Assembly (NCBI GenBank): GCA_964519015.1
Contig: CAZFHZ010000004.1
Coordinates: forward strand, 3,479-67,478
DNA: 64,000 bases
Reading direction: 5' to 3'
DNA from: an uncultured Gemmatimonadota bacterium
GTDB lineage: Bacteria > Blakebacterota > Blakebacteria > Blakebacterales > CAYUVJ01
Shown in pieces: positions 12,821 to 49,955 of the stretch. The position numbers and the translations under genes are program-made. A model generated the notes under the pieces. The model had not been told where the DNA came from. It saw only the letters and a program-made list of their open reading frames with translations, and did no database searches. The number at the start of each line of letters is the position of its first letter. The first letter of the stretch is position 1.

Positions 12821-14407
12821 CTATTCCTCCTCGAACGGGAGCGGCCAGACGGGGTGGAAGCGACCACTCGGACCGGCCGGCTCCGGCCGGAGCCGTTCCT
12901 CGCTCCGCTCGACCCATTCCTCCGGGTCCCTTTCATCCAGCCGGCGCAGCGGCCCTCCCCCCACCCCACTCCAACCCATCGTCTCCACCGCCGCCAGGTC
13001 AACCGCCCAGACGGGTATCCCGGCTGCCGCCAGCCGCGAAGCCTCGGCGGCGGCCGCCAGGAGCAACCGAGACCCGGCCTCCCGGTAGGCCCGGGCCGTC
13101 CAGCCCCCCGAAGGACCCGTGGTCCGACCCACCGCCTCGACCGCCCGGTAGACGGCCGGATCGGGTCGGCTCCGTCCCCGCACCCGGTGGTAGAACCGCA
13201 CGCCCTCCGGCCCGGTGAGCCGAGCCAGGAGCGCCCGCACGCGTTCCGTGTCCGCCGGTCCGACCCCGGCCGCCGTCTCCTCGACGGCCGACCGGACGGC
13301 CGGCCCGCCGGCCTGCTCCATGCGCCGGCAGGGACCGACCCCCATGCCGAGGCGGGCGGCCTCGGCATCGAGGGCGTCCGGTCGGGCGCCCTCCAGGACC
13401 AGTAGAAGCGCCTCGCGCCACCAGGCTTCGGCCACCCGCCGGCCGATCCCCTGCCGCTCCAGGCCCTCGGGCCACTCCCGGTGCGCCCGCTGCCTCAGGG
13501 TGAAGAGGCTGAGCAGATCGGCCGCTTCCGGGTGCCCGGCCGCCGCCCGGGCCAGTCGGATCGCCCGCCCGGCGCCCGCCGGCCAGCGGGAGCGGCCGGA
13601 GGGGAGCACCGAGTCGAGCAGGTCGTTGCGGAGTGCCTCTCCCGGGACCCCGGTCGCCAGCCGTTTCCAGAGACGGCGGCGCAGCCCGCGCCGGCCGACC
13701 GCGCTCCCTTCGATCAGCCGGTCGATCCAGGTGCTTCCCTGCGGATAGCGCCGCGGGCAGCGGCGCCGTCGCCGGACGGCGCCGGCCGACGGCCCCGCTG
13801 GGGGCGAAGTGCCGGCCGTTCCGCCGGCCGACGCCACCACCCGGTCGATCAGTCCGAAGCGGAGGGAGCGGGGAGCATTGAGAGGCCTGGTCCCCACGAG
13901 CAGTTCGAGGGCCCGCACCGGCCCCACCACCCGGGCCAGCCAGGCGGCTCCCCCCAGGACCGGCAGGAGACCGAAGGCCAGTTCGGGGTAGCCGAGCAGG
14001 GTTGAGGGATCATCGGTGGCCCAGCGCTCGTCGCAGGCCAGGGCCAGGGTCAGTGAAGCCCCGAGCGCCGGACCGTCGATGAGCGCCAGGGTGGGGGCGG
14101 GGAAGGCCTCCAGGGCGGCCAGCACCGGCCCGGCCGCCTGCTGGAGCGGCTCCAGGTAGGCCGCGTCCAGGCCGTTCGGCCGCCGCAGGCGGACGGGATC
14201 GAGACCGAGTCCGAAACGACCAGGGGGGCCGGTCACCACCAGCAGGGGGGGACGGGCGCGGGCGGCTTCCGTCAGCACGGTCGCGAAGTCTTCGAGGGAC
14301 CCCGGCGTCAGGTAACCCCGGTCGTCCTGGGGCAGCGTCAGGTTGAGGACGCCGGTCGCTGGATTGTCCTTCCTCATACCCCTCTCCCGCCAGGATCGCC
14401 CGAACAC
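12821..14407 (-). CDS. Enoyl-CoA hydratase (crotonase) fused to two 3-hydroxyacyl-CoA dehydrogenase C-terminal-like domains; no recognisable NAD-binding Rossmann motif
   Basis: N-terminal …LALIDGPALGASLTLALACDERWATDDPSTLLGYPELAFGLLPVLGGAAWLARVVG… crotonase fold; C-terminal …DAEAARLGMGVGPCRRMEQAGGPAV… and …VWAVDLAAVETMGWSGVGGGPLRRLDE… 3HCDH_C-like repeats; the intervening region is Arg-rich and degenerate. Confidence 0.5.
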   Translation of the reverse strand: MFGRSWRERGMRKDNPATGVLNLTLPQDDRGYLTPGSLEDFATVLTEAARARPPLLVVTGPPGRFGLGLDPVRLRRPNGLDAAYLEPLQQAAGPVLAALEAFPAPTLALIDGPALGASLTLALACDERWATDDPSTLLGYPELAFGLLPVLGGAAWLARVVGPVRALELLVGTRPLNAPRSLRFGLIDRVVASAGGTAGTSPPAGPSAGAVRRRRRCPRRYPQGSTWIDRLIEGSAVGRRGLRRRLWKRLATGVPGEALRNDLLDSVLPSGRSRWPAGAGRAIRLARAAAGHPEAADLLSLFTLRQRAHREWPEGLERQGIGRRVAEAWWREALLLVLEGARPDALDAEAARLGMGVGPCRRMEQAGGPAVRSAVEETAAGVGPADTERVRALLARLTGPEGVRFYHRVRGRSRPDPAVYRAVEAVGRTTGPSGGWTARAYREAGSRLLLAAAAEASRLAAAGIPVWAVDLAAVETMGWSGVGGGPLRRLDERDPEEWVERSEERLRPEPAGPSGRFHPVWPLPFEEE

Positions 14408-16415: not shown

Positions 16416-18182
16416 TCAGGCCGGTTCCCCATCTCCGGGGATCGGGAGGGTGATCCAGAAGATCGATCCGTGGGGCGAGGCGGGCAAATATCCGACCCGT
16501 CCCCCCATCGCCTCGGTCAAGTGCTTCACGATCGAGAGCCCCAGACCGGTCCCCCCCCGCTCGCGTGAGCGTCCCTCGTCCACCCGGTAGAAGCGTTCGA
16601 AAAGGCGTTCCCGGTGCCGGGGCTCGATGCCCGGCCCATCGTCGGCCACCTCGATCCTCAGGATCGAGCCGCTCTCCACCCGGATCTCGATATGGCTCCC
16701 GGGGGGAGCGTACCGGACCGCGTTCTCCAGCAGGTTGAGCAGTACCTGGTCGAGGGCCTGGGCGTCGGCCAGTGCGACCGGCTCCCCTTCCATGATCACC
16801 CGGATCGACTGCTGTCTGGATTCGGCCGCCGGGCCGACCGAACCGGCCGCCCTCCGGACCGCCGTGCCGACGGTGATAGGGGCGGGACGAGGCCGGTACT
16901 CCCCCGCCTCGATCTTGGAGATGTCGAGCAGGTCGGCAACCAGTCCGCTGAGTCGTTCGGCGTTGCGCAGGATGGCGTCGAGGAACCGGCGCGAACGGAC
17001 CGGGTCGTCGCTGGCGTCATCGATCAGTGTCTCGGCATTGGCGCGGATGATGCTGACCGGAGTGCGCAGCTCATGGGAGACGTTGGCTACGAAGTCCCGC
17101 CGTATCCTCTCCAGCCGGCGTAGCTCGGTCACATCGTGCAGCACCAGCACCACGCCACCGGTGATCCGCAGGGGGGTCGCCCGGGCCAGAACCCGGACCG
17201 GCCGGTCCGCCCCCACCTCGAACTCCCCGGAGCCGGGTTCACCGGCCAGCGCCCGGCCGACCAGTTCCTGGACGGCCGGCGCCCGGATCGTCTCCACCAG
17301 GCTCCGTCCGATGGGGACCTCGACCAGGCCGAGGAGCTTGAGTGCTCCGGCGTTGACCAACGTAACGTGCAGTCCGGGGTCGAGGGCCAGCACCGCCTCG
17401 CTCATGCTCTCCAGGACCGCTTCGAACCGGTTGCGCTCCCGGGCCAGTGTCTCCACGGTCTGTTCGAGCCGGTCGGCGATCTCGTTGACCGAACCGGCCA
17501 GACCGCCGATCTCATCGGAGGTGTAGGCGGCGATCCGGCGCCGTGTCCCTCCCCGGACGATCGCCTCTGAGGTCTCAGCCACCCGGCGCAGGGTCCGCGA
17601 CACCAGTTCGGCGGCCATACCGCTGAGCAGGATGGCCAGACCCACTCCGATGAGTCCGGCCAGCAGGAGGAAATCGCGCAGGCGATGACGGAGGAGGAGG
17701 ACCTCGGTCAGGGGGAGAGCCAGGCGGACCGTGCCCGGCCGGTCGGGTCGTTGCAGGGGGACCGCAATGTAGAGCATCCGGGTGCCGATGGTCGCGCTGT
17801 AGCGCCGGGAGACACCGATGCCCGTCTCCTGGGCCTGCCGGATCTCCGGGCGATCGCGGTGGTTCTCGATGGCCCGGACGCCCGCCAGGTCGAGGTCGGA
17901 ATCTCCGATGATCGTGCCGTCGGCCAGGATCAGGGTGACCCGGGCAGCGACCAACTCGGCGAGCGCATCAGCGGTGGAATCGGCCCGGATGACATCGAGC
18001 GGCCCCGGGAGTCTCGACACGATCCCGGCGGCGAGTCGGGCCTGGACCAGCAGCTCGCTCTCCAGACGCTGATCGAGCCAGGAGGTCAACCGCACCTGGA
18101 CGATCCCGCCGCTCACGGCGATCACCAGCAGGATGAGGAGCAGGGAGAGGCTGAAAAGTTTTAAGCGGATCCCGACTCTCAC
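16416..18182 (-). CDS. Sensor histidine kinase (TM-HAMP-PAS-HisKA-HATPase), PhoR-like
   Basis: GTG start at 18182 overlapping RR stop (GTGA); VRVGIRLKLFSLSLLLILLVIAVSG TM; …VANVSHELRTPVSIIRANAE… H-box; …GGTGLGLSIVKHLTEAMGGRV… G2 box. ORF-track start 18329 lies inside the RR gene. Confidence 0.8.
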   Translation of the reverse strand: MRVGIRLKLFSLSLLLILLVIAVSGGIVQVRLTSWLDQRLESELLVQARLAAGIVSRLPGPLDVIRADSTADALAELVAARVTLILADGTIIGDSDLDLAGVRAIENHRDRPEIRQAQETGIGVSRRYSATIGTRMLYIAVPLQRPDRPGTVRLALPLTEVLLLRHRLRDFLLLAGLIGVGLAILLSGMAAELVSRTLRRVAETSEAIVRGGTRRRIAAYTSDEIGGLAGSVNEIADRLEQTVETLARERNRFEAVLESMSEAVLALDPGLHVTLVNAGALKLLGLVEVPIGRSLVETIRAPAVQELVGRALAGEPGSGEFEVGADRPVRVLARATPLRITGGVVLVLHDVTELRRLERIRRDFVANVSHELRTPVSIIRANAETLIDDASDDPVRSRRFLDAILRNAERLSGLVADLLDISKIEAGEYRPRPAPITVGTAVRRAAGSVGPAAESRQQSIRVIMEGEPVALADAQALDQVLLNLLENAVRYAPPGSHIEIRVESGSILRIEVADDGPGIEPRHRERLFERFYRVDEGRSRERGGTGLGLSIVKHLTEAMGGRVGYLPASPHGSIFWITLPIPGDGEPA

Positions 18183-18886
18183 GACCCGGCCATCTCCGGT
18201 CTCGGACGCAAGCGGTAGCCGACGCCCCGGACGGTCTCGATGTACTCCCCGACCGGTCCGAGTTTCTCGCGGAGCCGCTTCACGTGAGTATCCACCGTCC
18301 GGGTGGTCACATCGGCCTGTATCCCCCACACATCATCCAGCAGCATGTCGCGTGTCTGGACCCGGCCCCGCCGGTCATACAGGGTGACCAGCAGCCGGAA
18401 CTCCAGGGCGGTCAGTACGACCTCCCTGTCCTCCACCCAGACCCGGTGCCCCGGTTCGTCGATGCGGAGTCGTCCGAAGACGACGGCCGGCGCCTCCTCC
18501 GATTCCTCCCCCCGCCCCCGGCGCAGCACCGCACGCACGCGCAGCATCAGTTCCCGCATGCTGAAGGGCTTGACCACATAGTCGTCGGCCCCGACCTCGA
18601 AACCGACCACGCGGTCGATCTCCTCCTCCCGGGCGGTCAACATGATGATGAAGACGTTCCGGGTGCGGGGGTCCTCCCGCAGGCGGCGGCAGACCTCGGT
18701 ACCGGAGATGTCGGGCAGCATGATATCGAGCAGGATGAGTTCGGGGACGGGCTCCTGCACGGCGAGTTCCAGCCCCGGGCCGCCTTCGGTCGCGGTCCGG
18801 GTCGTGTAGCCCTCCCGCTGCAGGTTGTATTCCAGGATACCGAGCAGATCCGCTTCGTCCTCGATGATCAGAACAAGACCGGGCAT
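18179..18886 (-). CDS. OmpR/PhoB-family response regulator (PhoB-like)
   Basis: MPGLVLIIEDEADLLGIL…DIMLPDISG…ADDYVVKPFSMRELMLRVRAVLRR…VDTHVKRLREKLGPVGEYIETVRGVGYRL close to PhoB receiver plus winged-helix. Confidence 0.85.
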   Translation of the reverse strand: MPGLVLIIEDEADLLGILEYNLQREGYTTRTATEGGPGLELAVQEPVPELILLDIMLPDISGTEVCRRLREDPRTRNVFIIMLTAREEEIDRVVGFEVGADDYVVKPFSMRELMLRVRAVLRRGRGEESEEAPAVVFGRLRIDEPGHRVWVEDREVVLTALEFRLLVTLYDRRGRVQTRDMLLDDVWGIQADVTTRTVDTHVKRLREKLGPVGEYIETVRGVGYRLRPRPEMAGS

Positions 18887-18910
18887 GATTCTGTGAACCT
18901 GCTATTCAGA

Positions 18911-18950
18911 GGTGACGGTGTGGTGACGTCCGGGCGACGATGTCGTGACG
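18911..18950 (-). promoter_or_regulatory. Four phased 7-bp direct repeats (pho-box-like, 11-bp periodicity) upstream of the PhoB-like operon
   Basis: Minus strand reads CCGTCAC-gaca-TCGTCGC-ccgg-ACGTCAC-caca-CCGTCAC, ending about 25 nt before the RR ATG (18886); plus-strand repeats GTGACGG/GTGACGT/GCGACGA/GTGACGG at 18911, 18922, 18933, 18944. Resembles the E. coli pho box (CTGTCAT 7-mers with 4-bp spacers). Confidence 0.5.
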
Positions 18951-19071
18951 GTGGACACCCTCGGTCGGTGGGAAGATAGTCCTGACCCCTGCCGGTCGTC
19001 ACGGCGCTATGCTCACCCGGCGCGCGTTCTCGTCCCGGCTGGCGGCCAGTCGTTCGAGCCGGTCATCGGGG

Positions 19072-21108
19072 TCACATCCCTTCGAAGAAGCTGCGCATGT
19101 CCTCCACGGCCTCCGGGGCCCCCACCAGGGTGAGCCGGTCCCCCACCTGCAACGGGGTACGACCGTGGGGTACGATCATCCGGCCCTCCCGGACGATCAT
19201 CGCGATCAGGCAGCTCTCGTGCATCTGGAGCTCTCCGATGGTGCGGCCGGCCAGCAGGGTGTCCCGCACATCCACCTCGAGGACCCCGCCGCTGCGCAGG
19301 AAGAGTCCCCGGATCCGCTCATCGGTGTCGAGTTCGCGCCAGCTCCCGCCGAAATCGATCGCCTCCGCCCGGTTGGCCAATTCGGCCAGATAGCGCAGGT
19401 GCCGGCCCGGGTCCTCGCTGGGACCGATCAGGATGAAGAGGGCGTAGATCGGCTCCTGGCTCCCTTCCACCCAGACCCCGGAGACCGAATGGACGATCGT
19501 CAGTTCCGGGCTCTCGACGAAATCCACCCGGGCATGAGGGAGTGCGACGTGACGTCCGATCGGGGTCTCCCCCAGCCGGCTGGAACTGGAGAGGGCGGCC
19601 AGGATGGAGTCGGCGGGCACTTCCAGGCGCTCTGAGAAAGAGGCCGCGGCCCGGGCGAGCAGGTCCCAGTAGCTCTCGCCTTCGCGGTGGCGGAGCACAC
19701 CGGCACGCACCACGCTGTTCTCGAACGCATCGCGCCGGCGGAGACCCTTCTCCCGCAGGATCTGGCGCAGTTCCTGGTCGAGATGGGGGGTGGCGGACCG
19801 TCCCATCCGCTGGAAGAGATGATAAAGGGCACCGGTGCGGGCGACCCGGTCTCGGGCGTAGTAGATGTACCAGAGGAGGGCCAGCGCAACGAGCGCACCG
19901 GAGGAGAGCAGCGGCATCAGGCCGAGCTGCGGGATGAGCACGACCGGTGTCAGGATCCCGACGATCTGCACCCAGGGATAACCCCAAGAACGGAAACCCG
20001 GATCGTAGGAGGGGATCCGGCTCTCCCGCATCACGATCACGGCCAGGCTGACCAGCCCGAAGACCATCAGCTGGAAGGCGCTGGCCAGTTTGGCGATGCC
20101 CACCGGACTGAGGACCAGGATGAAGACCATCATGAGACCGGCCGTGAGCAGGATGGCGTTGGTCGGGGTATGGAACCGGCCCAGCCGGCGGAAGACCTCG
20201 GGGGCCATGTCATCCCGCCCCATCGCGAACGGGTAACGGGAGGCGGCTGCCAGACCGGCGTTGGCGGAGGAGACGAAGGAGAGGACCGCGGCGGTCACGA
20301 AGGCCAGCACACCGATCCGCCCCGTGAAACGCCCGGCCGCATAGGCCACCGGGGTCAGGGTGCCGGAGAGTCCATCCGGCTCGCTCACCCCGATCAGCAC
20401 GAACATCACGAGCACATAGACCAGGGTGGCGATGCCCAGCGCATAGATCATCGCCAGCGGGATGGTGCGTTCGAGCCGATCGATCTCCTCGGAGATGCTG
20501 GCCACCTTGGTCAATCCGGTGAAACCCACGAAGACGATGCCCACCGAGGCCAGGAAGGCGTTGGCGTCAGTCGTCCAGAACGGCACCAGGTGCGAACTCT
20601 CCATATGGAAGAGACCCTCGACGACGAACCAGACCATCACGCCGAGTACGGCCGCGACCATCAGGACCTGGATGCGCGCCATGTGCCGAACCCCGGCGAT
20701 GTTGACCACCACCAGCAGACAGCAGATCGCCAGCGCCACCGGACGGAAAGAGAAGTCGAGGAAGAGCGCGGTGTATGCGCCCAGCCCCACCAGGTCGAAG
20801 GCGCTCTTGAAGGTCATGGCCAGCCAGGTCCCCAGCCCGGCCACCGTGCCGACCATCGGGCCGAGTGCCCGATCGAGGAAGAAATAGGTCCCGCCGGCAC
20901 GTGGCATGGCCGTGGAGAGTTCCGCTTTGCTGAGCAAGGCCGGAATCAACAGCAGGCCGGCCACCAGATAGACCAGAGGCGCCGCGTTCCCGACCTGGCG
21001 GAAGACCAGGGAAGGGAGCAGGAAGATCCCCGAAGCCAGCATCGGTGCGATACTGATCGCGAAGACCGCCGGCAAGCGAAGCTGTCTGCGCAGGCGCTGT
21101 TCGTTCAA
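19072..21108 (-). CDS. APC-family amino-acid permease fused to C-terminal PTS-EIIA(Ntr/fructose type-2)-like and TrkA_C domains
   Basis: 12 predicted TM helices (…SIAPMLASGIFLLPSLVFRQVGNAAPLVYLVAGLLLIPALLSKAELSTAMPRAGGTYFF…); C-terminal …LLARAAASFSERLEVPADSILAALSSSSRLGETPIGRHVALPHARVDFVESPELTIVHS… (EIIA-2-like with His) then …LAGRTIGELQMHESCLIAMIVREGRMIVPHGRTPLQVGDRLTLVG… (TrkA_C/RCK_C). Confidence 0.75.
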   Translation of the reverse strand: MNEQRLRRQLRLPAVFAISIAPMLASGIFLLPSLVFRQVGNAAPLVYLVAGLLLIPALLSKAELSTAMPRAGGTYFFLDRALGPMVGTVAGLGTWLAMTFKSAFDLVGLGAYTALFLDFSFRPVALAICCLLVVVNIAGVRHMARIQVLMVAAVLGVMVWFVVEGLFHMESSHLVPFWTTDANAFLASVGIVFVGFTGLTKVASISEEIDRLERTIPLAMIYALGIATLVYVLVMFVLIGVSEPDGLSGTLTPVAYAAGRFTGRIGVLAFVTAAVLSFVSSANAGLAAASRYPFAMGRDDMAPEVFRRLGRFHTPTNAILLTAGLMMVFILVLSPVGIAKLASAFQLMVFGLVSLAVIVMRESRIPSYDPGFRSWGYPWVQIVGILTPVVLIPQLGLMPLLSSGALVALALLWYIYYARDRVARTGALYHLFQRMGRSATPHLDQELRQILREKGLRRRDAFENSVVRAGVLRHREGESYWDLLARAAASFSERLEVPADSILAALSSSSRLGETPIGRHVALPHARVDFVESPELTIVHSVSGVWVEGSQEPIYALFILIGPSEDPGRHLRYLAELANRAEAIDFGGSWRELDTDERIRGLFLRSGGVLEVDVRDTLLAGRTIGELQMHESCLIAMIVREGRMIVPHGRTPLQVGDRLTLVGAPEAVEDMRSFFEGM

Positions 21109-21349
21109 ACGATCCTCCTTCGGGCCGTGCTCCGGCGCCGGTGCGGACCGATCCCGGCGGCGCGGGGAGAACAGAATATCGGATGGTCCTTCGGGGTGCC
21201 AGTACCGACCATCCAGCCTTCAAGGGCGGCGCGGGCGGACCGCAGAGGCCGCTTGCAGTCCCTCCCCTCCTTCCGGCAAAGTAGGGCGCTGATACGGGAC
21301 TCCGGCTCCCTCGGAGGGTCTGAGGGCAGAAGCGATCCCGATCCCCACC

Positions 21350-22495
21350 GTGGGGAGAGCGGAGGCGGGCATGGCGGTCGAGATCCGTGAAGTGAAGGAC
21401 CGGGCGGAGTTGAAGACGTTCATCTTCCTCCCCCGGGAGATCCACCGCGACCACTCCACCTGGGTGCCCCCCTTCTGGGGAGACGACCGGAACTATTATA
21501 ACGCCCGCAAGAACCGCGCCTTCCTCTACAGCGATGTCATCCTGCTGCTCGCCTGGCGGGAGGGCCGCCCGGTCGGCCGGGTGATGGGGATCGTCAACCG
21601 GCGTTTCAACGAACACCGGCAGGAGAAGACGGCCCGCTTCGGCTACCTCGACACCTTCGAGGACCCCGAGGTCGTCCCCGCCCTGCTGGCGGCGGTCGAG
21701 GAATGGGCCCGAGGGCTCGGGATGCAGCGCATCATCGGCCCCTACGGCTTCTCCGACCAGGACCCGGAGGGATTCCTCATCGAAGGCTTCGACAACCGGG
21801 CCACCATCGCCACCCTCCACAACTTCCGCTGGATGCCGCCGCTGATCGAACAGGCGGGCTACAGCAAGGACAACGACTACTTCGTCTACAAGATCGACAT
21901 CCCGGAAGTGCTGCCGGAGTTCTACACCAGGATCTTCGAACGGATCGTCAAGCGGGGACAGTTCCACCTGCTCGAATTCACCAAGCGGAGCCAGATCAAG
22001 CCGTGGATCGTGCCGGTGCTCTCCCTCATGAACGAGTGCTACATGGCCAGCAACATCTACGGCTACACCCCGCTCGACGAACAGGAGATGCATCACCTCG
22101 CCCAGCGCTATCTGCCCATCCTCGACCCTCGTTTCGTGAAGGTGGTGCTGAAGGACGACCAGGTGGTCTCGTTCGTCATCGGCATCCCCGATATGACCGA
22201 GGGGATCCAGCGGGCCGGCGGCCACCTCTTCCCCTTCGGCTTCATCCAGGTCCTGCAGGCCGCTCGGCGCACGCGACAGCTCGACCTGCTGCTGGGAGCC
22301 ATCAAGGAGGAGCACCGGGGGAAGGGGCTCGACGCGATGATGGGGGTGGCCATGCTCCGCTCCGCCTGGGAGGCGGGTATGGATGTCATCGACACCCACC
22401 ATGAGATGGAGACCAACACCAGCGTACGCGCCGAGATGGAGCGCATGGGCGGGGTCATCTACAAGAAGTACCGGGTCTGGCAGAAGACGCTCTGA
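21350..22495 (+). CDS. GNAT-fold N-acyltransferase-like protein (FemAB/DUF-type), function unknown
   Basis: 380 aa, no signal peptide; …FGYLDTFEDPEVVPALLAAVEEWARGLGMQRIIGPYGF… and C-terminal …LDLLLGAIKEEHRGKGLDAMM… consistent with tandem acyl-CoA N-acyltransferase folds; alternative start at 21371 (MAVEIREV). Confidence 0.45.
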   Translation: MGRAEAGMAVEIREVKDRAELKTFIFLPREIHRDHSTWVPPFWGDDRNYYNARKNRAFLYSDVILLLAWREGRPVGRVMGIVNRRFNEHRQEKTARFGYLDTFEDPEVVPALLAAVEEWARGLGMQRIIGPYGFSDQDPEGFLIEGFDNRATIATLHNFRWMPPLIEQAGYSKDNDYFVYKIDIPEVLPEFYTRIFERIVKRGQFHLLEFTKRSQIKPWIVPVLSLMNECYMASNIYGYTPLDEQEMHHLAQRYLPILDPRFVKVVLKDDQVVSFVIGIPDMTEGIQRAGGHLFPFGFIQVLQAARRTRQLDLLLGAIKEEHRGKGLDAMMGVAMLRSAWEAGMDVIDTHHEMETNTSVRAEMERMGGVIYKKYRVWQKTL

Positions 22496-22527: not shown

Positions 22528-24828
22528 ATGCATGAGCCAGCCGTAGGATGGCCGGGGTCGGCCGGCCCGGTCCTGTTGTCCCTCCTCCTCGCCGTCATCC
22601 TTCTCCCGACCGGCCCCGTCCGGGCCCAGTGGCGCCCCGCCGAGGGCCCGCTGAAGACCCGCTGGGCGGCCGAGGTCGCCCCCGATCGGGTCCATTCCGA
22701 ATACCCACGCCCGCAGCTGGTCCGCCCCGACTGGCTCAACTTGAACGGGCTCTGGGAGTACGCCATCACGCCGGCGGAGTCCCCCCGCCCGGAGCAGTGG
22801 GAGGGGCGGATCCTGGTCCCCTTCCCGGTGCAGTCCGCCCTCTCCGGGGTGATGCGCCGGCTGGGGCCCGAAGAACGCCTCTGGTATCGGCGCAGCTTCG
22901 AGGTGCCGGCCGGCTGGGCCGGTCGCCGGGTCCGGCTCCACTTCGGAGCGGTGGACTGGGAGGCCCGGGTATGGGTGAACGGCCGCGAGGTGGGCCGCCA
23001 CCGTGGCGGCTACGACGCATTCACCTGCGATCTCACCGCGGCGTTACAGCCAAGCGGGGCGCAGGAACTCGTGGTCACGGTGGCCGATCCCACCGACGCT
23101 GGGACGCAGCCGCGCGGCAAACAGGTCCGGGAGCCCCGCGGCATCTGGTACACCTCCACCTCCGGCATCTGGCAGACCGTCTGGCTCGAACCGGTCCCGG
23201 CCCGTCACATCACGGCCCTCGAGATGGTGCCCCTTCCGGATCGAGGCGTGCTGCGCCTGCGGGTGGAGACGGGCGGCCCGGCCGGGCCCCCGCTCGCGGT
23301 GGTGGCGACCGCGACCGCCCACGGCCAGCCCGTCGCGGCGGCACGCGCTCCGGTGACCGAGGTATTCGGCCTCCCGGTCCCCGAGGCCGTCCTCTGGTCC
23401 CCCGAGCACCCCTTCCTCTATGACCTGCGGGTGCAGTTGATCGAACAGGAGCAGATCATCGACGAGGTGACTTCCTACTTCGGGATGCGCTCGATCCAGA
23501 TCGGTCCCGATCCCGACGGGGTCATCCGGCTCCTGCTCAACGGCGAGCCTCTCTTCCAGATCGGGACCCTCGACCAGGGCTTCTGGCCCGACGGGCTCTA
23601 CACCGCCCCGACCGACGAAGCGCTCCGCTACGACATCGAGACCACCCGGGAGCTGGGCTTCAATACCATCCGTAAGCACGTCAAGATCGAGCCCGATCGC
23701 TGGTACTGGTGGTGCGACACCCTGGGGATGCTGGTCTGGCAGGACATGCCGAGCGGCGACCGCTCCATCGGAGGACGGGATCCCGACCTGGTGCGCTCCC
23801 CGGAGTCGGCTGCCCAGTTCGAGCGGGAGCTGGAGGCCCTGGTCCGGGGCCGCGGCAACCATCCCTCCATCATCATGTGGGTCCCCTTCAACGAGGGTTG
23901 GGGGCAGTACGACACCGGCCGGATCACGGCACTGCTGCACACCCTCGACCCGAGCCGGCCGGTCGATTCGGCCAGCGGCTGGACCGACCGTGGAACGGGG
24001 GCGGTCTCCGACATCCACCGCTATCCCGGTCCGGGGGCGCCGCGTCCGGAGGAGCGGCGGGCCCTGGTGCTGGGGGAGTTCGGCGGACTGGGGCTCCCCC
24101 TGCCCGGGCACCTCTGGCAGGAGGATCGCAACTGGGGTTACCGGACCTTCCCGGATCGCCCCGCTTTGACCGCCGGCTACGAGGCGCTGCTGGAACGCCT
24201 CCACCTGCTGCTGGGCACCGCCGGACTGTCGGCCGCGATCTACACCCAGACCACCGATGTGGAGATCGAGGTCAACGGACTGATGACCTACGACCGGGGG
24301 CTGATCAAGCTGGATCCCGACCGGGTGGCGGCGGCCAACCGGCGCCTGCACACCCCTCCCCCCCGGCTGCGGGCGGTGGTCCCCGACGCCCGGAGTGGGG
24401 AGGTGATCTGGCACTGGACGACGAGTGAGCCGGCGTCCGGCTGGGAGCAGCCCGGCTTCGACGACCGCGGCTGGGCGCAAGGGAAGGCCGGGTTCGGGCG
24501 GTCCGACACGCCGGGGGCGGTGGTCGGAACGGCCTGGGAGAGCAGTGACATATGGATCCGGAGGAGCTTCGAACTGTCCGATCCCGTGCCGGCCGACCTG
24601 AGGCTGGTGGTCCATCACGACGAGGACGCCGAAGTCTTCCTGAACGGCGTGCCCGCCGCCCGGCTGAGCGGCTACGTCACGGATTATCAGATGGAGGAAC
24701 TCTCAGCCGGTGCGCAAGCCACCCTCCACACCGGCCCCAACACGCTGGCCGTCCACTGCCGCCAGACCGGCGGCGGCCAGTTCATCGACGCCGGTCTGGT
24801 CCGGGTGCTCCCGCCGCCGCAGCCCTGA
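22528..24828 (+). CDS. Glycoside hydrolase family 2 (beta-mannosidase/beta-galactosidase-like), secreted, with extra C-terminal GH2_N-like beta-sandwich
   Basis: Signal peptide; LWYRRSFEVPAGWAGRRVRLHFGAVDWEARVWVNGREVGRHRGGYDAF (GH2 sugar-binding domain), …WCDTLGMLVWQDMPSG…MWVPFNEGWGQ (TIM barrel acid/base region); C-terminal repeat DIWIRRSFELSDPVPADLRLVVHHDEDAEVFLNG. Confidence 0.8.
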   Translation: MHEPAVGWPGSAGPVLLSLLLAVILLPTGPVRAQWRPAEGPLKTRWAAEVAPDRVHSEYPRPQLVRPDWLNLNGLWEYAITPAESPRPEQWEGRILVPFPVQSALSGVMRRLGPEERLWYRRSFEVPAGWAGRRVRLHFGAVDWEARVWVNGREVGRHRGGYDAFTCDLTAALQPSGAQELVVTVADPTDAGTQPRGKQVREPRGIWYTSTSGIWQTVWLEPVPARHITALEMVPLPDRGVLRLRVETGGPAGPPLAVVATATAHGQPVAAARAPVTEVFGLPVPEAVLWSPEHPFLYDLRVQLIEQEQIIDEVTSYFGMRSIQIGPDPDGVIRLLLNGEPLFQIGTLDQGFWPDGLYTAPTDEALRYDIETTRELGFNTIRKHVKIEPDRWYWWCDTLGMLVWQDMPSGDRSIGGRDPDLVRSPESAAQFERELEALVRGRGNHPSIIMWVPFNEGWGQYDTGRITALLHTLDPSRPVDSASGWTDRGTGAVSDIHRYPGPGAPRPEERRALVLGEFGGLGLPLPGHLWQEDRNWGYRTFPDRPALTAGYEALLERLHLLLGTAGLSAAIYTQTTDVEIEVNGLMTYDRGLIKLDPDRVAAANRRLHTPPPRLRAVVPDARSGEVIWHWTTSEPASGWEQPGFDDRGWAQGKAGFGRSDTPGAVVGTAWESSDIWIRRSFELSDPVPADLRLVVHHDEDAEVFLNGVPAARLSGYVTDYQMEELSAGAQATLHTGPNTLAVHCRQTGGGQFIDAGLVRVLPPPQP

Positions 24829-27997: not shown

Positions 27998-29113
27998 TTA
28001 GTACCCCGGCGGGCGCTCCGGCAGAGGGTAGAGGGTCACACCCTCCCGCGCGGCCGCCAGCACCTTCGAGAGACTGACCACAACCAACTTGGCGGTCGGG
28101 CTCGACAGCAGATAGACCCGGTCGCCGAGCACGACCAGGTCGTCCCAGGTGGCATGGTTACCTTCTTTGACCAGGTTGACCCCGAAGCGGCCGAAGGAGA
28201 CGGGGTGGAGCGCCCCCGTGGCCAGGTCGATGACGGCCAGGTTATAGAGCGGTCCGCCAACCAGGAGTTGATCTCCGATCTGTACCCCGCCCCCGAAGAT
28301 GGCCACTGCGCTAGCGGCACGGACGGCGGGGGCCCGGCGCTCTTCCAGCGTTTCCTGCCAGGCGGGGGCGATTAGGGGGAAACCCTTGTCAATCTCCCAG
28401 AACCAGTCGATCGGCTCGCTTCCAAGTCGCACCAGCCGCGGAACGTGCCGGAAGAGCAGCCAGGGAGAACCGGTTTCACCGATCAGATCCACGACTCCTT
28501 CTAAGAAGGTGCGGACACCCGGCTGCCAGGGATCGGCAGCCACTATCGCTCCGGTCCTGTCGTATTCGGTGAGCAGGGTGTCCGGCCGACCGGGAGAGCC
28601 GGTGAAATACTCCTCCACCGCCGGGTTGTACCGGTACTTGGCGACCAGGACCGTGCCGTGATCGGTCAGAAACACTTCCGGGGGGTGGGAAGCCCGGGTG
28701 AGGACGCGGAATCCACCCCGATAGCGGCCCTCATAGTCCAGGAACTCGATCCGGTTGCTCCGGCTCATGAAACCGTCCAGGACGGCCAGCGTGCCGTCCT
28801 GGACACAGATGTCGGCAATCCCGCTGAACTCCCCCGGTCCCTCTCCGAGCCGGCCGATCTTGCGGATAAGGTTCAGCTCGGCATCGAACACGTAGACCGC
28901 ATGCAGTCCCTGGTCGGCGATGAAGAGGAGCGGACTGTCGACGGCCGCGCTGACCGGCCGGTAGACCGGATAGCCGGGCAGATCGGTATGGACCTCGAAG
29001 TCGGTGAGTACCCCGCCCAGGGCGGGCCGCTTCTTCGGATCGCTCGAGGAGCCGCATGCCCCGCTGATCATCAGCAGGACCAGAAGGGGAGCGATCACCG
29101 TCCGCTTCCTCAT
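27998..29113 (-). CDS. NHL-repeat/6-bladed beta-propeller lipoprotein, paralog A
   Basis: Internal ATG 29113: MRKRTVIAPLLVLLMISGAC|GSS lipobox; …GRLGEGPGEFSGIADICVQDGTLAVLD… NHL-type blade. Confidence 0.55.
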   Translation of the reverse strand: MRKRTVIAPLLVLLMISGACGSSSDPKKRPALGGVLTDFEVHTDLPGYPVYRPVSAAVDSPLLFIADQGLHAVYVFDAELNLIRKIGRLGEGPGEFSGIADICVQDGTLAVLDGFMSRSNRIEFLDYEGRYRGGFRVLTRASHPPEVFLTDHGTVLVAKYRYNPAVEEYFTGSPGRPDTLLTEYDRTGAIVAADPWQPGVRTFLEGVVDLIGETGSPWLLFRHVPRLVRLGSEPIDWFWEIDKGFPLIAPAWQETLEERRAPAVRAASAVAIFGGGVQIGDQLLVGGPLYNLAVIDLATGALHPVSFGRFGVNLVKEGNHATWDDLVVLGDRVYLLSSPTAKLVVVSLSKVLAAAREGVTLYPLPERPPGY

Positions 29114-29126
29114 CCGATGACTCCGC

Positions 29127-30347
29127 TCAGTGATAATGCAGTCCCTCCACGGCCGGAACGATCCGGTAAACGATAGGTATCTGCTCATCGGTCTCTGGCA
29201 GAGTACGAATGCTCATAAGCTGGCCATCTCGGATCGAGAACAGCTTGCCCGGGAGGTGCGCGCGACCCAAATAGCGGCCCTCCGAGTCCACCACGTGCCA
29301 CCAGGCGGCATCCACAGCCCAATTGAAGACGTTGCCCTCAACATCGCGCAGCCAGAACCAGCCTCGATCGTCAGCATAGATACTCGTGCTGAAACCAAAC
29401 CGTTCCGCGAAGACGACCTGTTGTCGGATATCCTCCGACGGCAACCGGCCCTCGGCGGTGGCCAGACTATCCATGAATGTGAAGTACCGGTTCCTGAACG
29501 CAGCGTCGATGGGACGCTCCTGCTGGTCGATCCGGATGATCCGGCGCAGTACCCCCAGGGGGGAGAAGATCTGGATGAGTGGTTGGTTTCCTTGGGCGAG
29601 AATGATCTCGCGTTCACGAGTGACGGCCATAGCCGATGAACCCCCGAAGAAGACGACGGACAGACGTCCCCGATAAGTTCCTCCCAGTCCGGACGGGTAG
29701 GTGACCCTCGATTCCGGCACGAACTCACCCCGCACGATGGCCACCGTGTCACCTGTGGTCGCCCGCGTGATGAGGGCTCGCGGCCGAGTGTAGTGTACAT
29801 CGGTCAGCCGCTGACCTTCCCAACTGATGCCGATCAGATAATCGCGATTGGAAACCAGGACGTTTGGTACTCCACCATTCGACTGCCGGAAGGAATCGAG
29901 GAAACACCCGTCGGTGGTTACGCGGCTGGCCCGTTGAGTTCCGTGATCGTAGATCGTCAGGGTGTCGCCATCGAGAGCGGTAATCTCGGGACCCCGGTAC
30001 TCCCCGGGGCCGTAGCCACGCCGGCCGAATGTGCACCGGTACCTTCCGTCGGCCTCGTAGACGACGATCCGCCCTTTCCTCCCATCCACCACGTAGTACC
30101 GGCCGTCCATGCCCCGCTCGAAAGAGGCGACGCCCCATAGCAGCGATGCTTCTTGGGCGGAGTCCTGTTCCAGCCGGAACAGTTCCTCGAACCGGAAGAG
30201 CTGCTCAGCATAGGCCGGACCACCGGTGGTCTCGGCCACCCGGACGCCCTCCTCGGTGTGGGTGCGAAAACGATGGCCGCCCGGTGGGCCGCCCCCACAG
30301 CCGGACACGAGGATAACGGCCGCCAGTACGGGGCCGATCCGCGGCAT
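29127..30347 (-). CDS. NHL-repeat/6-bladed beta-propeller lipoprotein, paralog B
   Basis: MPRIGPVLAAVILVSGC|GGG lipobox; …RYYVVDGRKGRIVVYEADGRYRCTFGRRGYGPGEYRGPEITALDGDTLTIYD…; about 65% identical to paralog C with clear DNA-level similarity. Confidence 0.6.
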   Translation of the reverse strand: MPRIGPVLAAVILVSGCGGGPPGGHRFRTHTEEGVRVAETTGGPAYAEQLFRFEELFRLEQDSAQEASLLWGVASFERGMDGRYYVVDGRKGRIVVYEADGRYRCTFGRRGYGPGEYRGPEITALDGDTLTIYDHGTQRASRVTTDGCFLDSFRQSNGGVPNVLVSNRDYLIGISWEGQRLTDVHYTRPRALITRATTGDTVAIVRGEFVPESRVTYPSGLGGTYRGRLSVVFFGGSSAMAVTREREIILAQGNQPLIQIFSPLGVLRRIIRIDQQERPIDAAFRNRYFTFMDSLATAEGRLPSEDIRQQVVFAERFGFSTSIYADDRGWFWLRDVEGNVFNWAVDAAWWHVVDSEGRYLGRAHLPGKLFSIRDGQLMSIRTLPETDEQIPIVYRIVPAVEGLHYH

Positions 30348-30478: not shown

Positions 30479-31732
30479 TCAGCGATAGCGCAGACCCTCC
30501 ACGGCCGGAACGATCCGGTAAACGGTCGGGATCTGCTCGCCGGTCTCTTCGACGTAGCGGATGCACATGAGCAGACCGTCGCGGATGGCATAGGGCGTGC
30601 CGGGAAAGTATGCCCGCCCCAGGTAACGCCCCTCGGCGTCCACGACGTGCCAGCCCGCCGCGTCCGGTTCGGTGGCGATGTACCGGCTCATCACATCCAT
30701 GAGCCATAACCATCCCCGGTCGTCCGCCCGCAGATCCTCGCTGAAACCGACTTTGTCCGCGAAGACGAGACGCTCCCGAAGACCTTCCTGAGGGATTCTT
30801 CCGCTGGCGGTCGCCAGACTGTCCATGAATGCGAAGTACCGGTTGCGGAATGAGGCGTCGATAGGCCGCTCCGGCTGCTCGATCCGGATGCGGGGGCGCG
30901 GCTCTCCGAGCGGCGAAAAGATCTGGATGAGGGCTTCGTTCCCCTGCGCCACCACGATGTCATGCCGGGGAGTGATCACCATCATGGGATACCCACCCAG
31001 TTGCAGCATGGAATAGCGGCCGCGGTAGGTGCCCCCCGGTTCCGTCAGATCTGTGAAGCGGGTTACGGGCACGAACTCCCCGCGCACGATAGCCACCGTG
31101 TCGCCCGTGGCCGCCCGGGTGATGAGGGCCCGGGACCGGCTGTACTGGATGTTGGCCGGCCGTTGACTCTCCGAGACGACGCCGATCAGCAGGCCGTCGT
31201 GGGCCACCAGGACGCTCGGTCCTCCACCGTTCGACTGCCGGAAGGTATCGAGGAGACGCCCGTCGGTGGTGAATCGGATTGCCCGCTGCAGTCCGGTGTC
31301 GTGGATCGTCAGGGTGTCCCCGTCGAAGGCGGTGAGCTTGGGCATCCGGAACTCGCCCGGGCCGCTGCCGCGCCGGCCGAACGTGCTCCGGTACGACCCG
31401 TCCGCCTCATAGACCACGACCCGGCAATCGCCGCCGTCCAGCACGTAGTACCGGCCGTCCGGGCCCCGTTCGAATGAATTGACCCGGCTGAGCAGGGAGG
31501 CTTCCTGCGCCGGGTCCTGCTTCAGCCGGAGCACCTCCTCGAACCGGAAGAGGGGCTCGGAGTGGGCCGGACCGCCGGTGGTCTCGGCCACCCGGACACC
31601 ATCCTCGGTATAGGTACGGAACTGGTGACCGCCCGGCGGGCCGCCCCCGCAGCCGACGAGAATCCCGAGCAGCAGCACCAGGATTGGCCGGAGTGACCGT
31701 CCGATCGTCCCAGCATAGTCGGTGCGCGACAT
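30479..31732 (-). CDS. NHL-repeat/6-bladed beta-propeller lipoprotein, paralog C
   Basis: MSRTDYAGTIGRSLRPILVLLLGILVGC|GGG; …RYYVLDGGDCRVVVYEADGSYRSTFGRRGSGPGEFRMPKLTAFDGDTLTIHD…; ATG overlaps paralog D stop (TGATG). Confidence 0.6.
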   Translation of the reverse strand: MSRTDYAGTIGRSLRPILVLLLGILVGCGGGPPGGHQFRTYTEDGVRVAETTGGPAHSEPLFRFEEVLRLKQDPAQEASLLSRVNSFERGPDGRYYVLDGGDCRVVVYEADGSYRSTFGRRGSGPGEFRMPKLTAFDGDTLTIHDTGLQRAIRFTTDGRLLDTFRQSNGGGPSVLVAHDGLLIGVVSESQRPANIQYSRSRALITRAATGDTVAIVRGEFVPVTRFTDLTEPGGTYRGRYSMLQLGGYPMMVITPRHDIVVAQGNEALIQIFSPLGEPRPRIRIEQPERPIDASFRNRYFAFMDSLATASGRIPQEGLRERLVFADKVGFSEDLRADDRGWLWLMDVMSRYIATEPDAAGWHVVDAEGRYLGRAYFPGTPYAIRDGLLMCIRYVEETGEQIPTVYRIVPAVEGLRYR

Positions 31733-32967
31733 CAGCGTTCCTCCTCAAGTCGATAGAAACGCACCACCGGAGTGCCATCCTCCAGCTCTTCGTAACGGTA
31801 GTAGCCGTCCTGGTCGAAGTAGAACGGCTCTTGCGGCAGACTCTGGCTGAAGAGCCAGTCCCCGTCGGGATCGAAGACATCGAACCGGTAGGGATCACCC
31901 TCTTCTTCGGCGGCGTAGGTGCGGTATCGCATGACCCAGAGACGCTCCCGCCGGTCCCAGAACATCTCCCCGATAGCCGGCATACGGTCCGGGTAGTCCA
32001 GCCGCCGCAGCCCTTCCTCCGGGTAGCGCTGGGCCGCGTACGACTTGATGAAGGCCTCGATCTCGGGTCCGGTGACCGCCGGACCTTGAACCGGGAGCGT
32101 CAGCTCGATCCGTCCCCCATCCCGGGCGTTCAGGATCACTATCCGGTAGTCTCCCGAGTCCACCCAGGCCAATCGCCCACCGCTCAGGGCGAACTCAGCA
32201 TGGTCTTCGTGCTGAAAGGGACTGGAGAGGTACTTGTTGCCCAGGATAGGCCAGCGGGTCAGGTAGGTGGTGTCGAGCACGGCCTCGATTCGATTCGGAT
32301 GAGGCCACCATCGATCCAACCGGTACTGCCACTGAAAGGTGATCGCGTCCTGGAACGACCCGCTGAGGCCCCGGCCGTCGTACCGGAAGACCGCGAATCC
32401 GCCGCCAGGCAGTAACGTCAACTCCTGATTGGTCCCGGTCAGTTCAGGGGGCAGGAGGAATTGGCCGAGATAGGCGCCCGTCCGATCGTAGCAGGAGATC
32501 CGCCGATTGGAGCTGTCCAGTACGGCCAGGGTGTCACCGGGGAAGACCACCGTGGTGATGGTCCCGAACTCGCCCGGGCCTTTCCCTCGCCGTCCGAAGG
32601 AGCCGAGATGGGTACCGCTGGGATCGAAGCGGTGAACCACCCCTGCCCGGGCATCGCCGATCAGCACCGTACCCGCGGGATCGACTCCCATTATCATGGG
32701 AGCGACGAGCAGGTAGGTGTCATCGGACTGGTCGGCGCCGAAGACGGCTGCGGGCACCACGCGGTAGGGATCGACTCGCGGAGGCAGATCTCCGAGGTAG
32801 TGGAGGCTGGTCACGCCGCCGACAACCTCCCGGAGATAGCCGGTTTCCTCGTGCCCGCCGCAGCTGCAGGCGAACAGGACACTCAACAGCACCAACACGT
32901 CGCGCAGGGATGAAAGTACCGGTCTGCTCATTCCGGGTCGTTGCTCCTGACCAGAGAATCTATCCAT
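31732..32967 (-). CDS. NHL-repeat/6-bladed beta-propeller lipoprotein, paralog D
   Basis: …VLVLLSVLFACSC|GG lipobox; …GTHLGSFGRRGKGPGEFGTITTVVFPGDTLAVLD…; alternative start 32931. Confidence 0.55.
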   Translation of the reverse strand: MDRFSGQEQRPGMSRPVLSSLRDVLVLLSVLFACSCGGHEETGYLREVVGGVTSLHYLGDLPPRVDPYRVVPAAVFGADQSDDTYLLVAPMIMGVDPAGTVLIGDARAGVVHRFDPSGTHLGSFGRRGKGPGEFGTITTVVFPGDTLAVLDSSNRRISCYDRTGAYLGQFLLPPELTGTNQELTLLPGGGFAVFRYDGRGLSGSFQDAITFQWQYRLDRWWPHPNRIEAVLDTTYLTRWPILGNKYLSSPFQHEDHAEFALSGGRLAWVDSGDYRIVILNARDGGRIELTLPVQGPAVTGPEIEAFIKSYAAQRYPEEGLRRLDYPDRMPAIGEMFWDRRERLWVMRYRTYAAEEEGDPYRFDVFDPDGDWLFSQSLPQEPFYFDQDGYYRYEELEDGTPVVRFYRLEEER

Positions 32968-32971: not shown

Positions 32972-34183
32972 CTACCGCGGGATCTCGATCCGGTAGCGCT
33001 TCACCCGGGGGACCTGGTCGGGAGAGCGTACCGATGTGATGAACACGTCGCCGCGGATCCAGACGAGCGAGCTCAGCCGGACCTCGTCGGGCAACTCCAG
33101 GGTCCCCAGGTATCTCCCGGCGGTCTCGAAGACATCCACCACCTGCGAGGAATCCCAGCGGGGCGGCGTATCGGCATCCTCGCCTCCGACCCGGACGCCC
33201 GGTCCCTCACGGACCACCCAGAGCCGGCCGCTCAGGTCGGCTACGATCTCGGAGAACCACGGTTTGGTGTCGGGGACCGGGGGCGCCCGCCAGGAGAAGG
33301 AGGGATCGGAGTGGCGCAGGATGCGGGTGTAGGTCTCGATGTACCAGTCCCTCTCTTCACGCTGGACCGGAATGGGTTCGCACACCCGTTCGAGGGCGTG
33401 GACGGAACCCTCCCGGTCCGTCACCGTGATCCGGTAGCGGTCGGAGATGCCGTGGATGAGGGAACCGTCTACGCTGAACGTCCAGACCAGGTCCGGAGCG
33501 AACGGCACCGACAATGCCGTCCGCTCGGTCCTGAGCTGGTACTTCTCGCTGTCGAAGAAGGGCGCCCAGACCGTGTCGAGGACCGCTTCCCTCGGCCCGG
33601 TCCGGCCCATGCCGTAGCGCCGAGGCGGCCGCCGGTTGGCGATGGGCACGTAAGCTCCTCCATCGCGGGTGAGGATCGTCGGGCGGAAGGAGCCGAGGTA
33701 GGAGGAGAGCGGCCAGGTGGCCGCCGGGACTCCGTCCAGCGTGTAGACGTTCACCCGGTTCAGGCTGATGTCCCGAACCACGACCCGGTCCTGTTCCGCG
33801 TCCACGGCGAGACCGGTAGGCAGGCGGAACTCCCCCGGTCCCGCACCCCGGCCGCCGAAGTCGAAGAGATGCCGGCCGTCCCAGCCGTAGACCCGCACCC
33901 GGAAGAAGGAGGAGTCCAGGACATAGATCCGGTCCCCGGTGGCGCCCAGCCCCATCACCGACCCCAACAGGTAGGGTCCTTCCTCATTACTGCCGATCGA
34001 GACTTCTTCGACCAGACGGGCCGGTTCTTTCCAGACCGACCCGGAGAGGGTGCGCACGGTACGGATCCCCTCCATGACGAGCTCTTCCTGCCGCCAGGTC
34101 CCATCGTCCGGCACCCGGCCCCCGCAGGAGCACAAGAATGGAAGGAGCGTCATCAGCAGCAGGACGTGGGCAGTACGCATCGT
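32972..34183 (-). CDS. NHL-repeat/6-bladed beta-propeller lipoprotein, paralog E
   Basis: Internal ATG 34183: MRTAHVLLLMTLLPFLCSC|GG; …RVYGWDGRHLFDFGGRGAGPGEFRLPTGLAVDAEQDRVVVRD…; track ORF start 34294 falls inside the tRNA terminator hairpin, so it was trimmed. Confidence 0.55.
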   Translation of the reverse strand, partial: TMRTAHVLLLMTLLPFLCSCGGRVPDDGTWRQEELVMEGIRTVRTLSGSVWKEPARLVEEVSIGSNEEGPYLLGSVMGLGATGDRIYVLDSSFFRVRVYGWDGRHLFDFGGRGAGPGEFRLPTGLAVDAEQDRVVVRDISLNRVNVYTLDGVPAATWPLSSYLGSFRPTILTRDGGAYVPIANRRPPRRYGMGRTGPREAVLDTVWAPFFDSEKYQLRTERTALSVPFAPDLVWTFSVDGSLIHGISDRYRITVTDREGSVHALERVCEPIPVQREERDWYIETYTRILRHSDPSFSWRAPPVPDTKPWFSEIVADLSGRLWVVREGPGVRVGGEDADTPPRWDSSQVVDVFETAGRYLGTLELPDEVRLSSLVWIRGDVFITSVRSPDQVPRVKRYRIEIPR

Positions 34184-34261
34184 CGGGCTCCTGGTCGAGG
34201 GACCGCCCGGTTCCGGTAGTATCGAGAGGACGGATCCGGAGGGCAGGCGTTTATCACCGTC

Positions 34262-34305
34262 CGGGAACACAAACGCCCCCTGGAGGCGGTTCATCCTCCA
34301 GGGGG
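34262..34305 (-). terminator. Rho-independent terminator downstream of tRNA-Asn
   Basis: 11-bp perfect inverted repeat CCCCCTGGAGG/CCTCCAGGGGG (34276-34286 / 34295-34305, 8-nt loop) followed on the minus strand by GTTTGTGTT. Confidence 0.65.
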
Positions 34306-34311
34306 CATCGG

Positions 34312-34389
<78 letters not shown>

Positions 34390-39548: not shown

Positions 39549-40036
39549 GGCTTCTCCCCGGCGCGGGGATCGCCCGCGGCCGTTTCTTCCATCCGGCGGA
39601 ACCAGTCGATGGTCTCCTCGGGGGAGGCAACCTTCCGGAGCCCCTCCCGGACCACGGCATCGTCACAGAGGCGGGCCAGCCGGCCCAGTATGCGCACGAT
39701 GGTGGAAGGATCACGACGATCGGCGATCAGCAGAAAGAAGAGGTCGGCCGGTCGGCCGTCCACGGCTCCCACATCGAGAGGTCGCACCGGCCGGCCGAAA
39801 GCGAGCGCGAACCCGGGGAAGCCGTCGAGGCGGGCGTGAGGGAGCGCCACCCCGTTGCCAACCCCGGTCGAGAGCACCTGTTCCCGGCGCAGGACCTCCT
39901 CCAGCAGGGGAAGGCTGGGGTCGGCCTTACCCGCGGCCGTCAGCGCCTCCACCAGCGCACCGAAGACCTCGGCTTTGTCCCGGGCCTGGATGTCGAGCCG
40001 GATGGTGGCCGGACTCAGCTGTCGCCAGATCTCCAT
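39545..40036 (-). CDS. ptsN: PTS EIIA(Ntr) nitrogen-regulatory protein PtsN
   Basis: …VFGALVEALTAAGK…EVLRREQVLSTGVGNGVALPHARLDG…DLFFLLIADRRDPSTIVRILGRL… EIIA-2 fold with phosphorylatable His. Confidence 0.8.
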   Translation of the reverse strand: MEIWRQLSPATIRLDIQARDKAEVFGALVEALTAAGKADPSLPLLEEVLRREQVLSTGVGNGVALPHARLDGFPGFALAFGRPVRPLDVGAVDGRPADLFFLLIADRRDPSTIVRILGRLARLCDDAVVREGLRKVASPEETIDWFRRMEETAAGDPRAGEKP

Positions 40037-40063
40037 GCCTCACTCATCCCCGTGCGCGCGGAT

Positions 40064-40510: not shown

Positions 40511-40638
40511 TACTCCCGTCCTCCCGTCTGGAACACATTCCTCCGGCGCCGGGGCCGCCTGACCTGGTCGAAGATACGCAGGCGGATGGTATCGGCCGTG
40601 GGGAAGATTGTAAGTATGCGGGTCTTGGAACTCGGGCG

Positions 40639-44372: not shown

Positions 44373-44424
44373 AAACAAAACGGGAGGAGGTTGTTGGCCT
44401 CCCCCCGCTCCCGAGAAGAGGTGG

Positions 44425-44772: not shown

Positions 44773-44784
44773 CGCGTACACTCC

Positions 44785-49276: not shown

Positions 49277-49277
49277 C

Positions 49278-49952: not shown

Positions 49953-49955
49953 CGT

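Follow-up and report, generated by a model that had tools for sequence, protein, structure and literature searches.

A predicted four-unit Pho box array upstream of a phoB-phoR-like operon, with counterparts at regulator, pstS and porin genes of related Myxococcota

A tandem array of four 7-nt direct repeats separated by 4-nt spacers lies immediately upstream of a phoB-like response regulator (RR) gene on the minus strand of the window, by which is meant the whole 64-kb stretch of DNA analysed. The repeat is non-random, it is conserved upstream of orthologous regulator genes, and it is present at the pstS and porin genes of relatives. In all likelihood the array serves a phoB-phoR operon as operator and promoter, with predicted PhoB binding and positive autoregulation, and its four repeat copies are very probably the regulator's own predicted binding sites. 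From the sequence and its comparison with relatives we infer that the RR binds the array and that it activates and does not repress the operon, and we likewise propose the -10 element and the transcription start. The arrangement is an already well-known textbook circuit, found here in a little-studied lineage.

The RR gene (18179..18886, minus strand) encodes a 235-aa protein with a receiver domain and a winged-helix domain (Response_reg and Trans_reg_C). Its ATG at 18886 is the first possible start codon, because an in-frame TAG is present at 18904-18902. The phoR-like histidine kinase gene (16416..18182, minus strand) specifies, according to a domain search, a transmembrane segment, an extracytoplasmic region of ~145 aa, a second transmembrane segment, and HAMP, PAS, HisKA and HATPase_c domains. 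The two genes share the tetranucleotide GTGA at 18182-18179, in which the GTG start codon of the kinase at 18182 overlaps the TGA stop codon of the RR at 18181-18179. The overlap noted in the first-pass annotation is therefore present at these positions, the overlapping kinase is PhoR/PnpS-like, and, judging from the overlap, its translation is coupled to that of the RR.

Among the NCBIfam models, the best match of the RR is PhoB (TIGR02154) with 241.7 bits, which does not reach the curated cut-off of 296.2. The orthologues that are linked to pstS score 244-257 bits on the same model, likewise under the cut-off, and the shortfall of the RR may therefore be taken as lineage divergence and not as paralogy. 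It appears that the PhoB equivalog model TIGR02154 under-calls this lineage. With PhoB as the best NCBIfam family and with pstS-linked orthologues that score alike, the earlier description of the RR as PhoB-like holds. The best models for the kinase are PnpS and proteobacterial PhoR, both under their cut-offs. The best PDB relative of the RR is RegX3, the phosphate RR of mycobacteria. The RR is 40% identical to what we take to be the E. coli PhoB sequence, and its segments RTVDtHvkRLR and TVRGvGYR align with RTVDVHIRRLR and TVRGTGYR in that sequence. The aligned residues, RTVD-H--RLR and TVRG-GYR, presumably include the recognition-helix and wing residues that contact DNA in PhoB.

With its four 11-bp units the array extends over 18908..18951 on the minus strand and may be read as two adjacent Pho boxes, a predicted site for two PhoB dimers; this reading is based on the sequence, repeat finders, simulations and a PWM. 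Read on that strand from 18951 to 18912, the 7-mers are CCGTCAC (unit 1, 18945..18951), TCGTCGC (unit 2, 18934..18940), ACGTCAC (unit 3, 18923..18929) and CCGTCAC (unit 4, 18912..18918), with gaca, ccgg and caca as the successive spacers and an exact 11-bp period. Unit 1 is a consensus half-site that fits the YYGTCAC consensus of 27 external sites. Unit 2 is a weaker variant with a GTCGC core, and the same variant occurs as an in-phase extra unit upstream of the pstS/porin boxes in four of the related loci, which are designated here by L numbers (L008, L018, L027, L028). Units 3 and 4 together are the top PWM match in the window, and unit 4 is the predicted promoter-proximal half-site. The TGTCA-like tract is found with a GTCA core in units 1, 3 and 4 and as GTCG in unit 2. 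The first core position is C in the array and T in E. coli, and related Myxococcota sites have both CGTCAC and TGTCAC. A Pho box has at least two head-to-tail 11-bp units (7 conserved positions plus 4), and the array has four. The interval between unit 4 and the ATG at 18886 is CTCTGAATAGCAGGTTCACAGAATC (18911-18887). The four 7-bp repeats, 4-bp spacers and exact 11-bp period described in the first-pass annotation can be read directly, with two repeat finders in agreement, and its approximate distance of 25 nt from the end of the repeats to the ATG proves to be exactly 25 nt.

The array is picked up by TRF with a period of 11, 3.9 copies, a score of 37 and 62% matches, and a separate repeat finder run on the window gives it as three 18-nt copies with an 11-nt spacing. 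When both strands of the 64-kb window are searched for CGTC[AG]C-N5-CGTC[AG]C, the array is the only site found, with three overlapping matches; the number of two-unit matches expected by simulation is 0.077 per window. A motif-blind score, defined as the number of identical pairs among four successive 11-nt units, has its window-wide maximum at the array (45/66). The maxima in second-order Markov simulations of the window are 37.9 ± 1.8, and 45 is reached in none of the 300 simulations. The runner-up at period 11 (~22610-22640) was set aside as unrelated, being G+C-rich low-complexity coding sequence.

An inverted spacer plus half-site, CCGGTCGTCAC, is present at 18992-19002 on the plus strand, 41 nt upstream of the array, and is 91% complementary to 18923-18933. 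The relevance of this inverted copy is uncertain, and it may be due to chance, since it is a single half-site and the window contains 44 copies of CGTCAC. An Rfam scan found no RNA family in 18700-19200, and the spacer is therefore not explained by a riboswitch or leader RNA.

The nearest relatives of the RR in the genome collection are from Myxococcota MAGs (Nannocystales, Kofleriaceae and other Polyangia), with identities of no more than 70%, and the relatives in the metagenome collection have identities of no more than 71%. No exact match to the RR protein is on record. Full-length kinase orthologues, sensor region included, follow the RR gene in L001, L002, L003, L006, L013 and L018, with identities of 46-51%. 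Aside from the RR and the kinase, a synteny search found no flanking genes common to the window and the orthologous loci.

In most of the Myxococcota loci, whose spacers are otherwise unalignable, the orthologous RR gene is preceded by a two-unit box, YYGTCAC-N4-YYGTCAC. In the 80 genome loci and the window, which amount to 2.73 Mb counting both strands, GTCA[CT]N6GTCA[CT] has 38 matches. About 16 of these are within 160 nt upstream of the orthologous RR gene and on its strand, and for 14 the distance is no more than 60 nt. Of 39 loci in a separate metagenome set, 15 have the strict box no more than 110 nt ahead of the RR gene, and several more have it with one mismatch. The candidate motif proposed from the window alone thus recurs upstream of the orthologous RR genes in most of the genome loci, and the result is repeated in the metagenome set. 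In L001, the closest relative in the genome collection (70%), the RR gene has no box over the 130 nt that precede it.

Most of the GTCA[CT]N6GTCA[CT] matches that are not at RR genes precede PstS-type, Porin_O_P or ABC permease genes. The box is upstream of PstS-type PBP_like_2 genes in five loci (L002, L007, L010, L028, L048), of a phosphate-selective Porin_O_P gene in L008, and of an ABC permease gene in L048. In all nine of the nine Myxococcota loci with a PstS-type gene, a box precedes either that gene or the first gene of its operon, the box in L011 being of the weaker GTCGC-N6-GTCAC form. RR orthologues are linked to pstS or porin genes in six loci (L002, L007, L008, L010, L011, L018). 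The expected occurrence of the motif at phosphate genes, tested in related Myxococcota, is therefore borne out by the boxes before the five PstS-type genes and before the Porin_O_P and ABC permease genes. This regulon test rests on other genomes, with RR identities of 57-70%, because the flanks are not syntenic and a Pfam search of 34 ORFs across 0-50 kb of the window turned up neither pst nor phoU nor phosphatase genes (about nine ORFs at 50-63.4 kb being outside the search).

Two further observations were made in these loci. L001 has a perfect box, TGTCACaaagTTGTCAC, before a gene for a 225-aa protein (13526-14244, minus strand), whose match to Amphi-Trp is sub-threshold (24.1 bits against a cut-off of 27); this protein is possibly an uncharacterised member of the Pho regulon. 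Linkage of genes for porin O/P-like outer-membrane proteins to phoBR and pstS is recurrent, and is seen in L002 (12507-13496), L010 (12292-13272) and L011 (16001-17047), and further in L007 (1838-3178) and L005 (8402-9934). Some of the linked porin genes have a Pho box of their own, and some follow phoR directly and have none.

A 22-nt PWM was built from the 27 external sites only. Over all positions and both strands of the window, it ranks the site at 18929 (units 3-4, 16.9 bits) first and that at 18951 (units 1-2, 13.5 bits) second; as the training sites were chosen by a regular expression that fixes the GTCAC cores, the independent information is in the flanking positions and the ranking only. 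The third match, at +34483 (10.4 bits), was rejected, since it falls between two minus-strand genes, is wrongly oriented and has a poor second half-site.

The distance between the box and the start codon is 22-30 nt in most of the orthologues, for example in L002, L004, L005, L007, L011, L089, L091, L095 and L096, and 25 nt in the window. In the orthologues, a TAnnnn or CAGGyT-like hexamer is present 10-11 nt after the box, such as CAAGGT in L027, CAGATT in L028, CAGGCT in L117 and L120, and TAGAAA in L002. By analogy with these hexamers at like spacing, CAGGTT at 18896..18901 on the minus strand, 10 nt after unit 4, is the candidate -10 hexamer of the window, and it resembles the hexamers at the same position in L027, L028, L117 and L120. 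Two alternatives on the same strand, TAGCAG (18899-18904) and GAATAG (18902-18907), are more -10-like than CAGGTT, yet the distance from unit 4 is only 7 nt for the first and 4 nt for the second. A scan found no consensus sigma-70 promoter on the gene strand, and a weak consensus match on the opposite strand at 18952-18980 is regarded as due to chance.

The start codon is often exactly 6 nt after the -10-like hexamer (L002, L005, L011, L089, L095, L096), and no Shine-Dalgarno sequence is visible before the ATG at 18886. The geometry of box, hexamer and start codon thus leaves no room for a leader with a Shine-Dalgarno sequence. The earlier proposal of a nearly leaderless transcript is consistent with the 22-30 nt spacing in most orthologues, and the pattern suggests that leaderless phoB mRNAs are conserved across the Myxococcota orthologue group.

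The orthologous promoters vary in the number of contiguous units: among about 30, there are two units in 27, three in two, and four in the window only. Five loci (L008, L013, L083, L084, L092) have one more in-phase unit, placed two positions upstream and separated by a unit that does not match. The array of the window looks like a filled-in version of this layout.

In the mechanism proposed for the array, each 11-bp unit (7 conserved and 4 variable nt) would provide one half-site, bound by the winged-helix domain of the regulator in its phosphorylated form. The regulator would bind head-to-tail as dimers, and the four units would place two dimers on the same face of the helix. The promoter-proximal dimer, on units 3-4, would act in place of a -35 element and would recruit sigma-70 RNA polymerase to the weak -10 about 10 nt downstream. 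Phosphate limitation would then lead to more phoBR transcription, a positive autoregulation predicted from the architecture. Transcription would start ~0-8 nt before the ATG and give a leaderless or nearly leaderless mRNA, on which the GTGA overlap would couple translation of the kinase to that of the RR. The four units may possibly give a response that is mixed or steeper.

The unit number bears on the sign of the regulation. PhoB may bind the array while the extra units give a net negative or mixed effect, either auto-repression or activation coupled with repression, but this is quite unlikely. Auto-repression would result if units 3-4 were too near the real -10 (TAGCAG or GAATAG, at 4-7 nt), such that the polymerase would be occluded at high PhoB~P. 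It would accord with the finding that the window alone among the orthologous promoters has four contiguous units and that its only TAnnnn hexamers are 4-7 nt from unit 4, as against 10-11 nt in the orthologues; at E. coli phoB, moreover, a second PhoB site, located at the -10 region, causes repression and hence coupled negative feedback (PMC6194859). However, CAGGTT is exactly 10 nt from unit 4 and has CAGGyT-type counterparts at the same spacing in L027, L028, L117 and L120, and the box-to-ATG distance of 25 nt is that of the single-box orthologues. This spacing puts units 3-4 at the usual activating position, with units 1-2 as an upstream addition, and activation by PhoB is the reading preferred here.

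Two other readings concern the identity of the regulator and the reality of the site. A paralogue of the true PhoB, with its DNA specificity but responsive to another signal, is a very unlikely identity for the regulator; the array would in that case autoregulate a non-phosphate two-component system. Although the RR and kinase scores are under the PhoB/PhoR equivalog cut-offs, orthologues with 63-68% RR identity have the same sub-threshold PhoB scores and directly adjoin pstS/porin genes preceded by a box. In favour of a paralogue, the operon in the window has no pst linkage and adjoins amino-acid permease and MarR-type genes, and its kinase has a sizeable extracytoplasmic region; E. coli PhoR is not known to have one. 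Also in its favour, Myxococcus xanthus has several PhoP-like systems, PhoR1-P1, PhoR2-P2, PhoR3-P3 and PhoP4 (PMC4415409). Against a paralogue, the kinase match is full-length in L002 and L018 (48-50% identity) and extends from about residue 180 on in L008 and L010, the L007 kinase being absent among the matches listed, and no closer group with a different context is found among the 80 genome and 80 metagenome loci. That the array is a functionless tandem repeat, produced by chance or slippage in a G+C-rich spacer, is extremely unlikely: while its TRF score of 37 at 62% matches is modest and like that of many other TRF rows, its period-11 score exceeds every one of the simulated maxima, and its conserved columns are those of the YYGTCAC half-site kept upstream of orthologous RR and pstS genes despite unalignable spacers. 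Judged by these comparative sequence data, the chance reading is already contradicted.

The gene upstream of the operon on the same strand (19072-21108, minus strand) encodes an APC-family amino-acid permease with a C-terminal fusion to PTS_EIIA_2 and TrkA_C domains, and a scan found no terminator between it and the RR gene. The permease-PTS EIIA-2-TrkA-C fusion is unusual; L022 is the single one of the 80 genome loci with a relative, which matches the permease part only. The gene downstream of the kinase gene encodes a MarR-type regulator, and a gene for an outer-membrane efflux protein is also present in the window, the G+C content of which is ~68%; both features agree with an origin among uncultured Myxococcota, as suggested by the relatives of the RR. 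An AT skew of 0.21, which is marked, is seen in the 20-22 kb stretch. Elsewhere in the window, a conserved cluster at 39545-49955 (minus strand) includes an EIIA(Ntr)-like protein, HPr kinase, sigma-54 and LptA/LptC-like proteins, and a gene with an MlaD domain is found at 41655-42587. Four ORFs, 21293-22495 (+), 30479-31744 (-), 40495-41751 (+) and 42515-43351 (+), have coding-like codon bias and no Pfam match. Two paralogous-looking ORFs, 27998-29212 (-) and 32972-34351 (-), give weak matches to DUF5128 (6-bladed beta-propeller).

YYGTCAC-N4-YYGTCAC represents a comparatively validated Pho-box motif for a branch of the Myxococcota that has been little studied and is mostly uncultured, and with its help the phosphate-starvation regulons of these genomes may be predicted. 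No description of a Pho box for Myxococcota was found in the searchable literature, which is not proof of absence. It is also conceivable, if unlikely, that the four-unit array and the leaderless layout constitute a lineage-specific control, and also that the kinase senses a periplasmic cue directly and not via PstSCAB/PhoU; sensing of this kind is suggested by the ~145-aa extracytoplasmic region of the kinase and the lack of pst linkage. If such control existed, two cooperating PhoB dimers would provide a steeper or a two-stage switch, which would activate and then limit, and a leaderless phoB mRNA would couple the synthesis of the regulator to the starvation state of the ribosome pool.

In known systems, the Pho box consists of two 11-nt direct-repeat units (7 conserved plus 4) with the consensus CTGTCAT, bound head-to-tail by a PhoB dimer (PMC4415409). 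The phoA box of E. coli, CTGTCATAAAGTTGTCAC, is situated around -35 (PMC8601176), and a Pho box mediates the positive autoregulation of E. coli phoBR (PMC6194859). Like the E. coli phoB promoter, the array has 7-nt repeats with TGTCA-like tracts and 4-nt spacers ahead of the operon of the regulator itself, at the -35 region in E. coli and at a predicted one in the window (PMC4415409, PMC6194859). The two differ in consensus and spacers, which are CTGTCAT and A+T-rich in E. coli, and YYGTCAC and G+C-rich in the window. They differ also in layout, as E. coli phoB combines a single activating box of two units with a distinct repressing site at -10, whereas the window has four contiguous units. 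The E. coli phoB mRNA has a normal leader; in the window, by contrast, the room for a leader is only ~0-8 nt.

Arrays of more than one box have precedents. The E. coli pstS promoter has multiple Pho boxes, and multiple pho boxes at Vibrio cholerae phoBR were reportedly described by Diniz et al. in 2011 (cited in PMC6194859). Multiple boxes are also present at E. coli ugp (PMC4415409). The array of the window is similar to these three in its adjacent boxes in helical phase, as for several PhoB dimers; in contrast to it, the boxes at E. coli pstS/ugp and V. cholerae phoBR have been footprinted, while the array is a predicted site in a different phylum.

The PhoB box of D. vulgaris consists of (c/t)GT(n)AC repeats and was validated by DAP-chip (PMC3333781). 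As in the window, the motif of D. vulgaris PhoB (DVU1083, from the former Deltaproteobacteria) is a repeat with a 4-bp spacer, and it is located upstream of pstSCA (PMC3333781). It differs in being a 6-bp repeat with a degenerate middle position, whereas GTCAC is invariant in the collected myxobacterial sites, an invariance partly owing to the way the sites were selected. The PHO boxes of Streptomyces coelicolor PhoP likewise have 11-nt direct-repeat units in a high-G+C genome (PMC4415409), and the units vary in number, giving 'simple' and 'complex' operators (PMC4415409). The core in S. coelicolor is GTTCACC and the regulator is actinobacterial, whereas the half-site related to the window is YYGTCAC and its RR is closer to RegX3 and PhoB by sequence.
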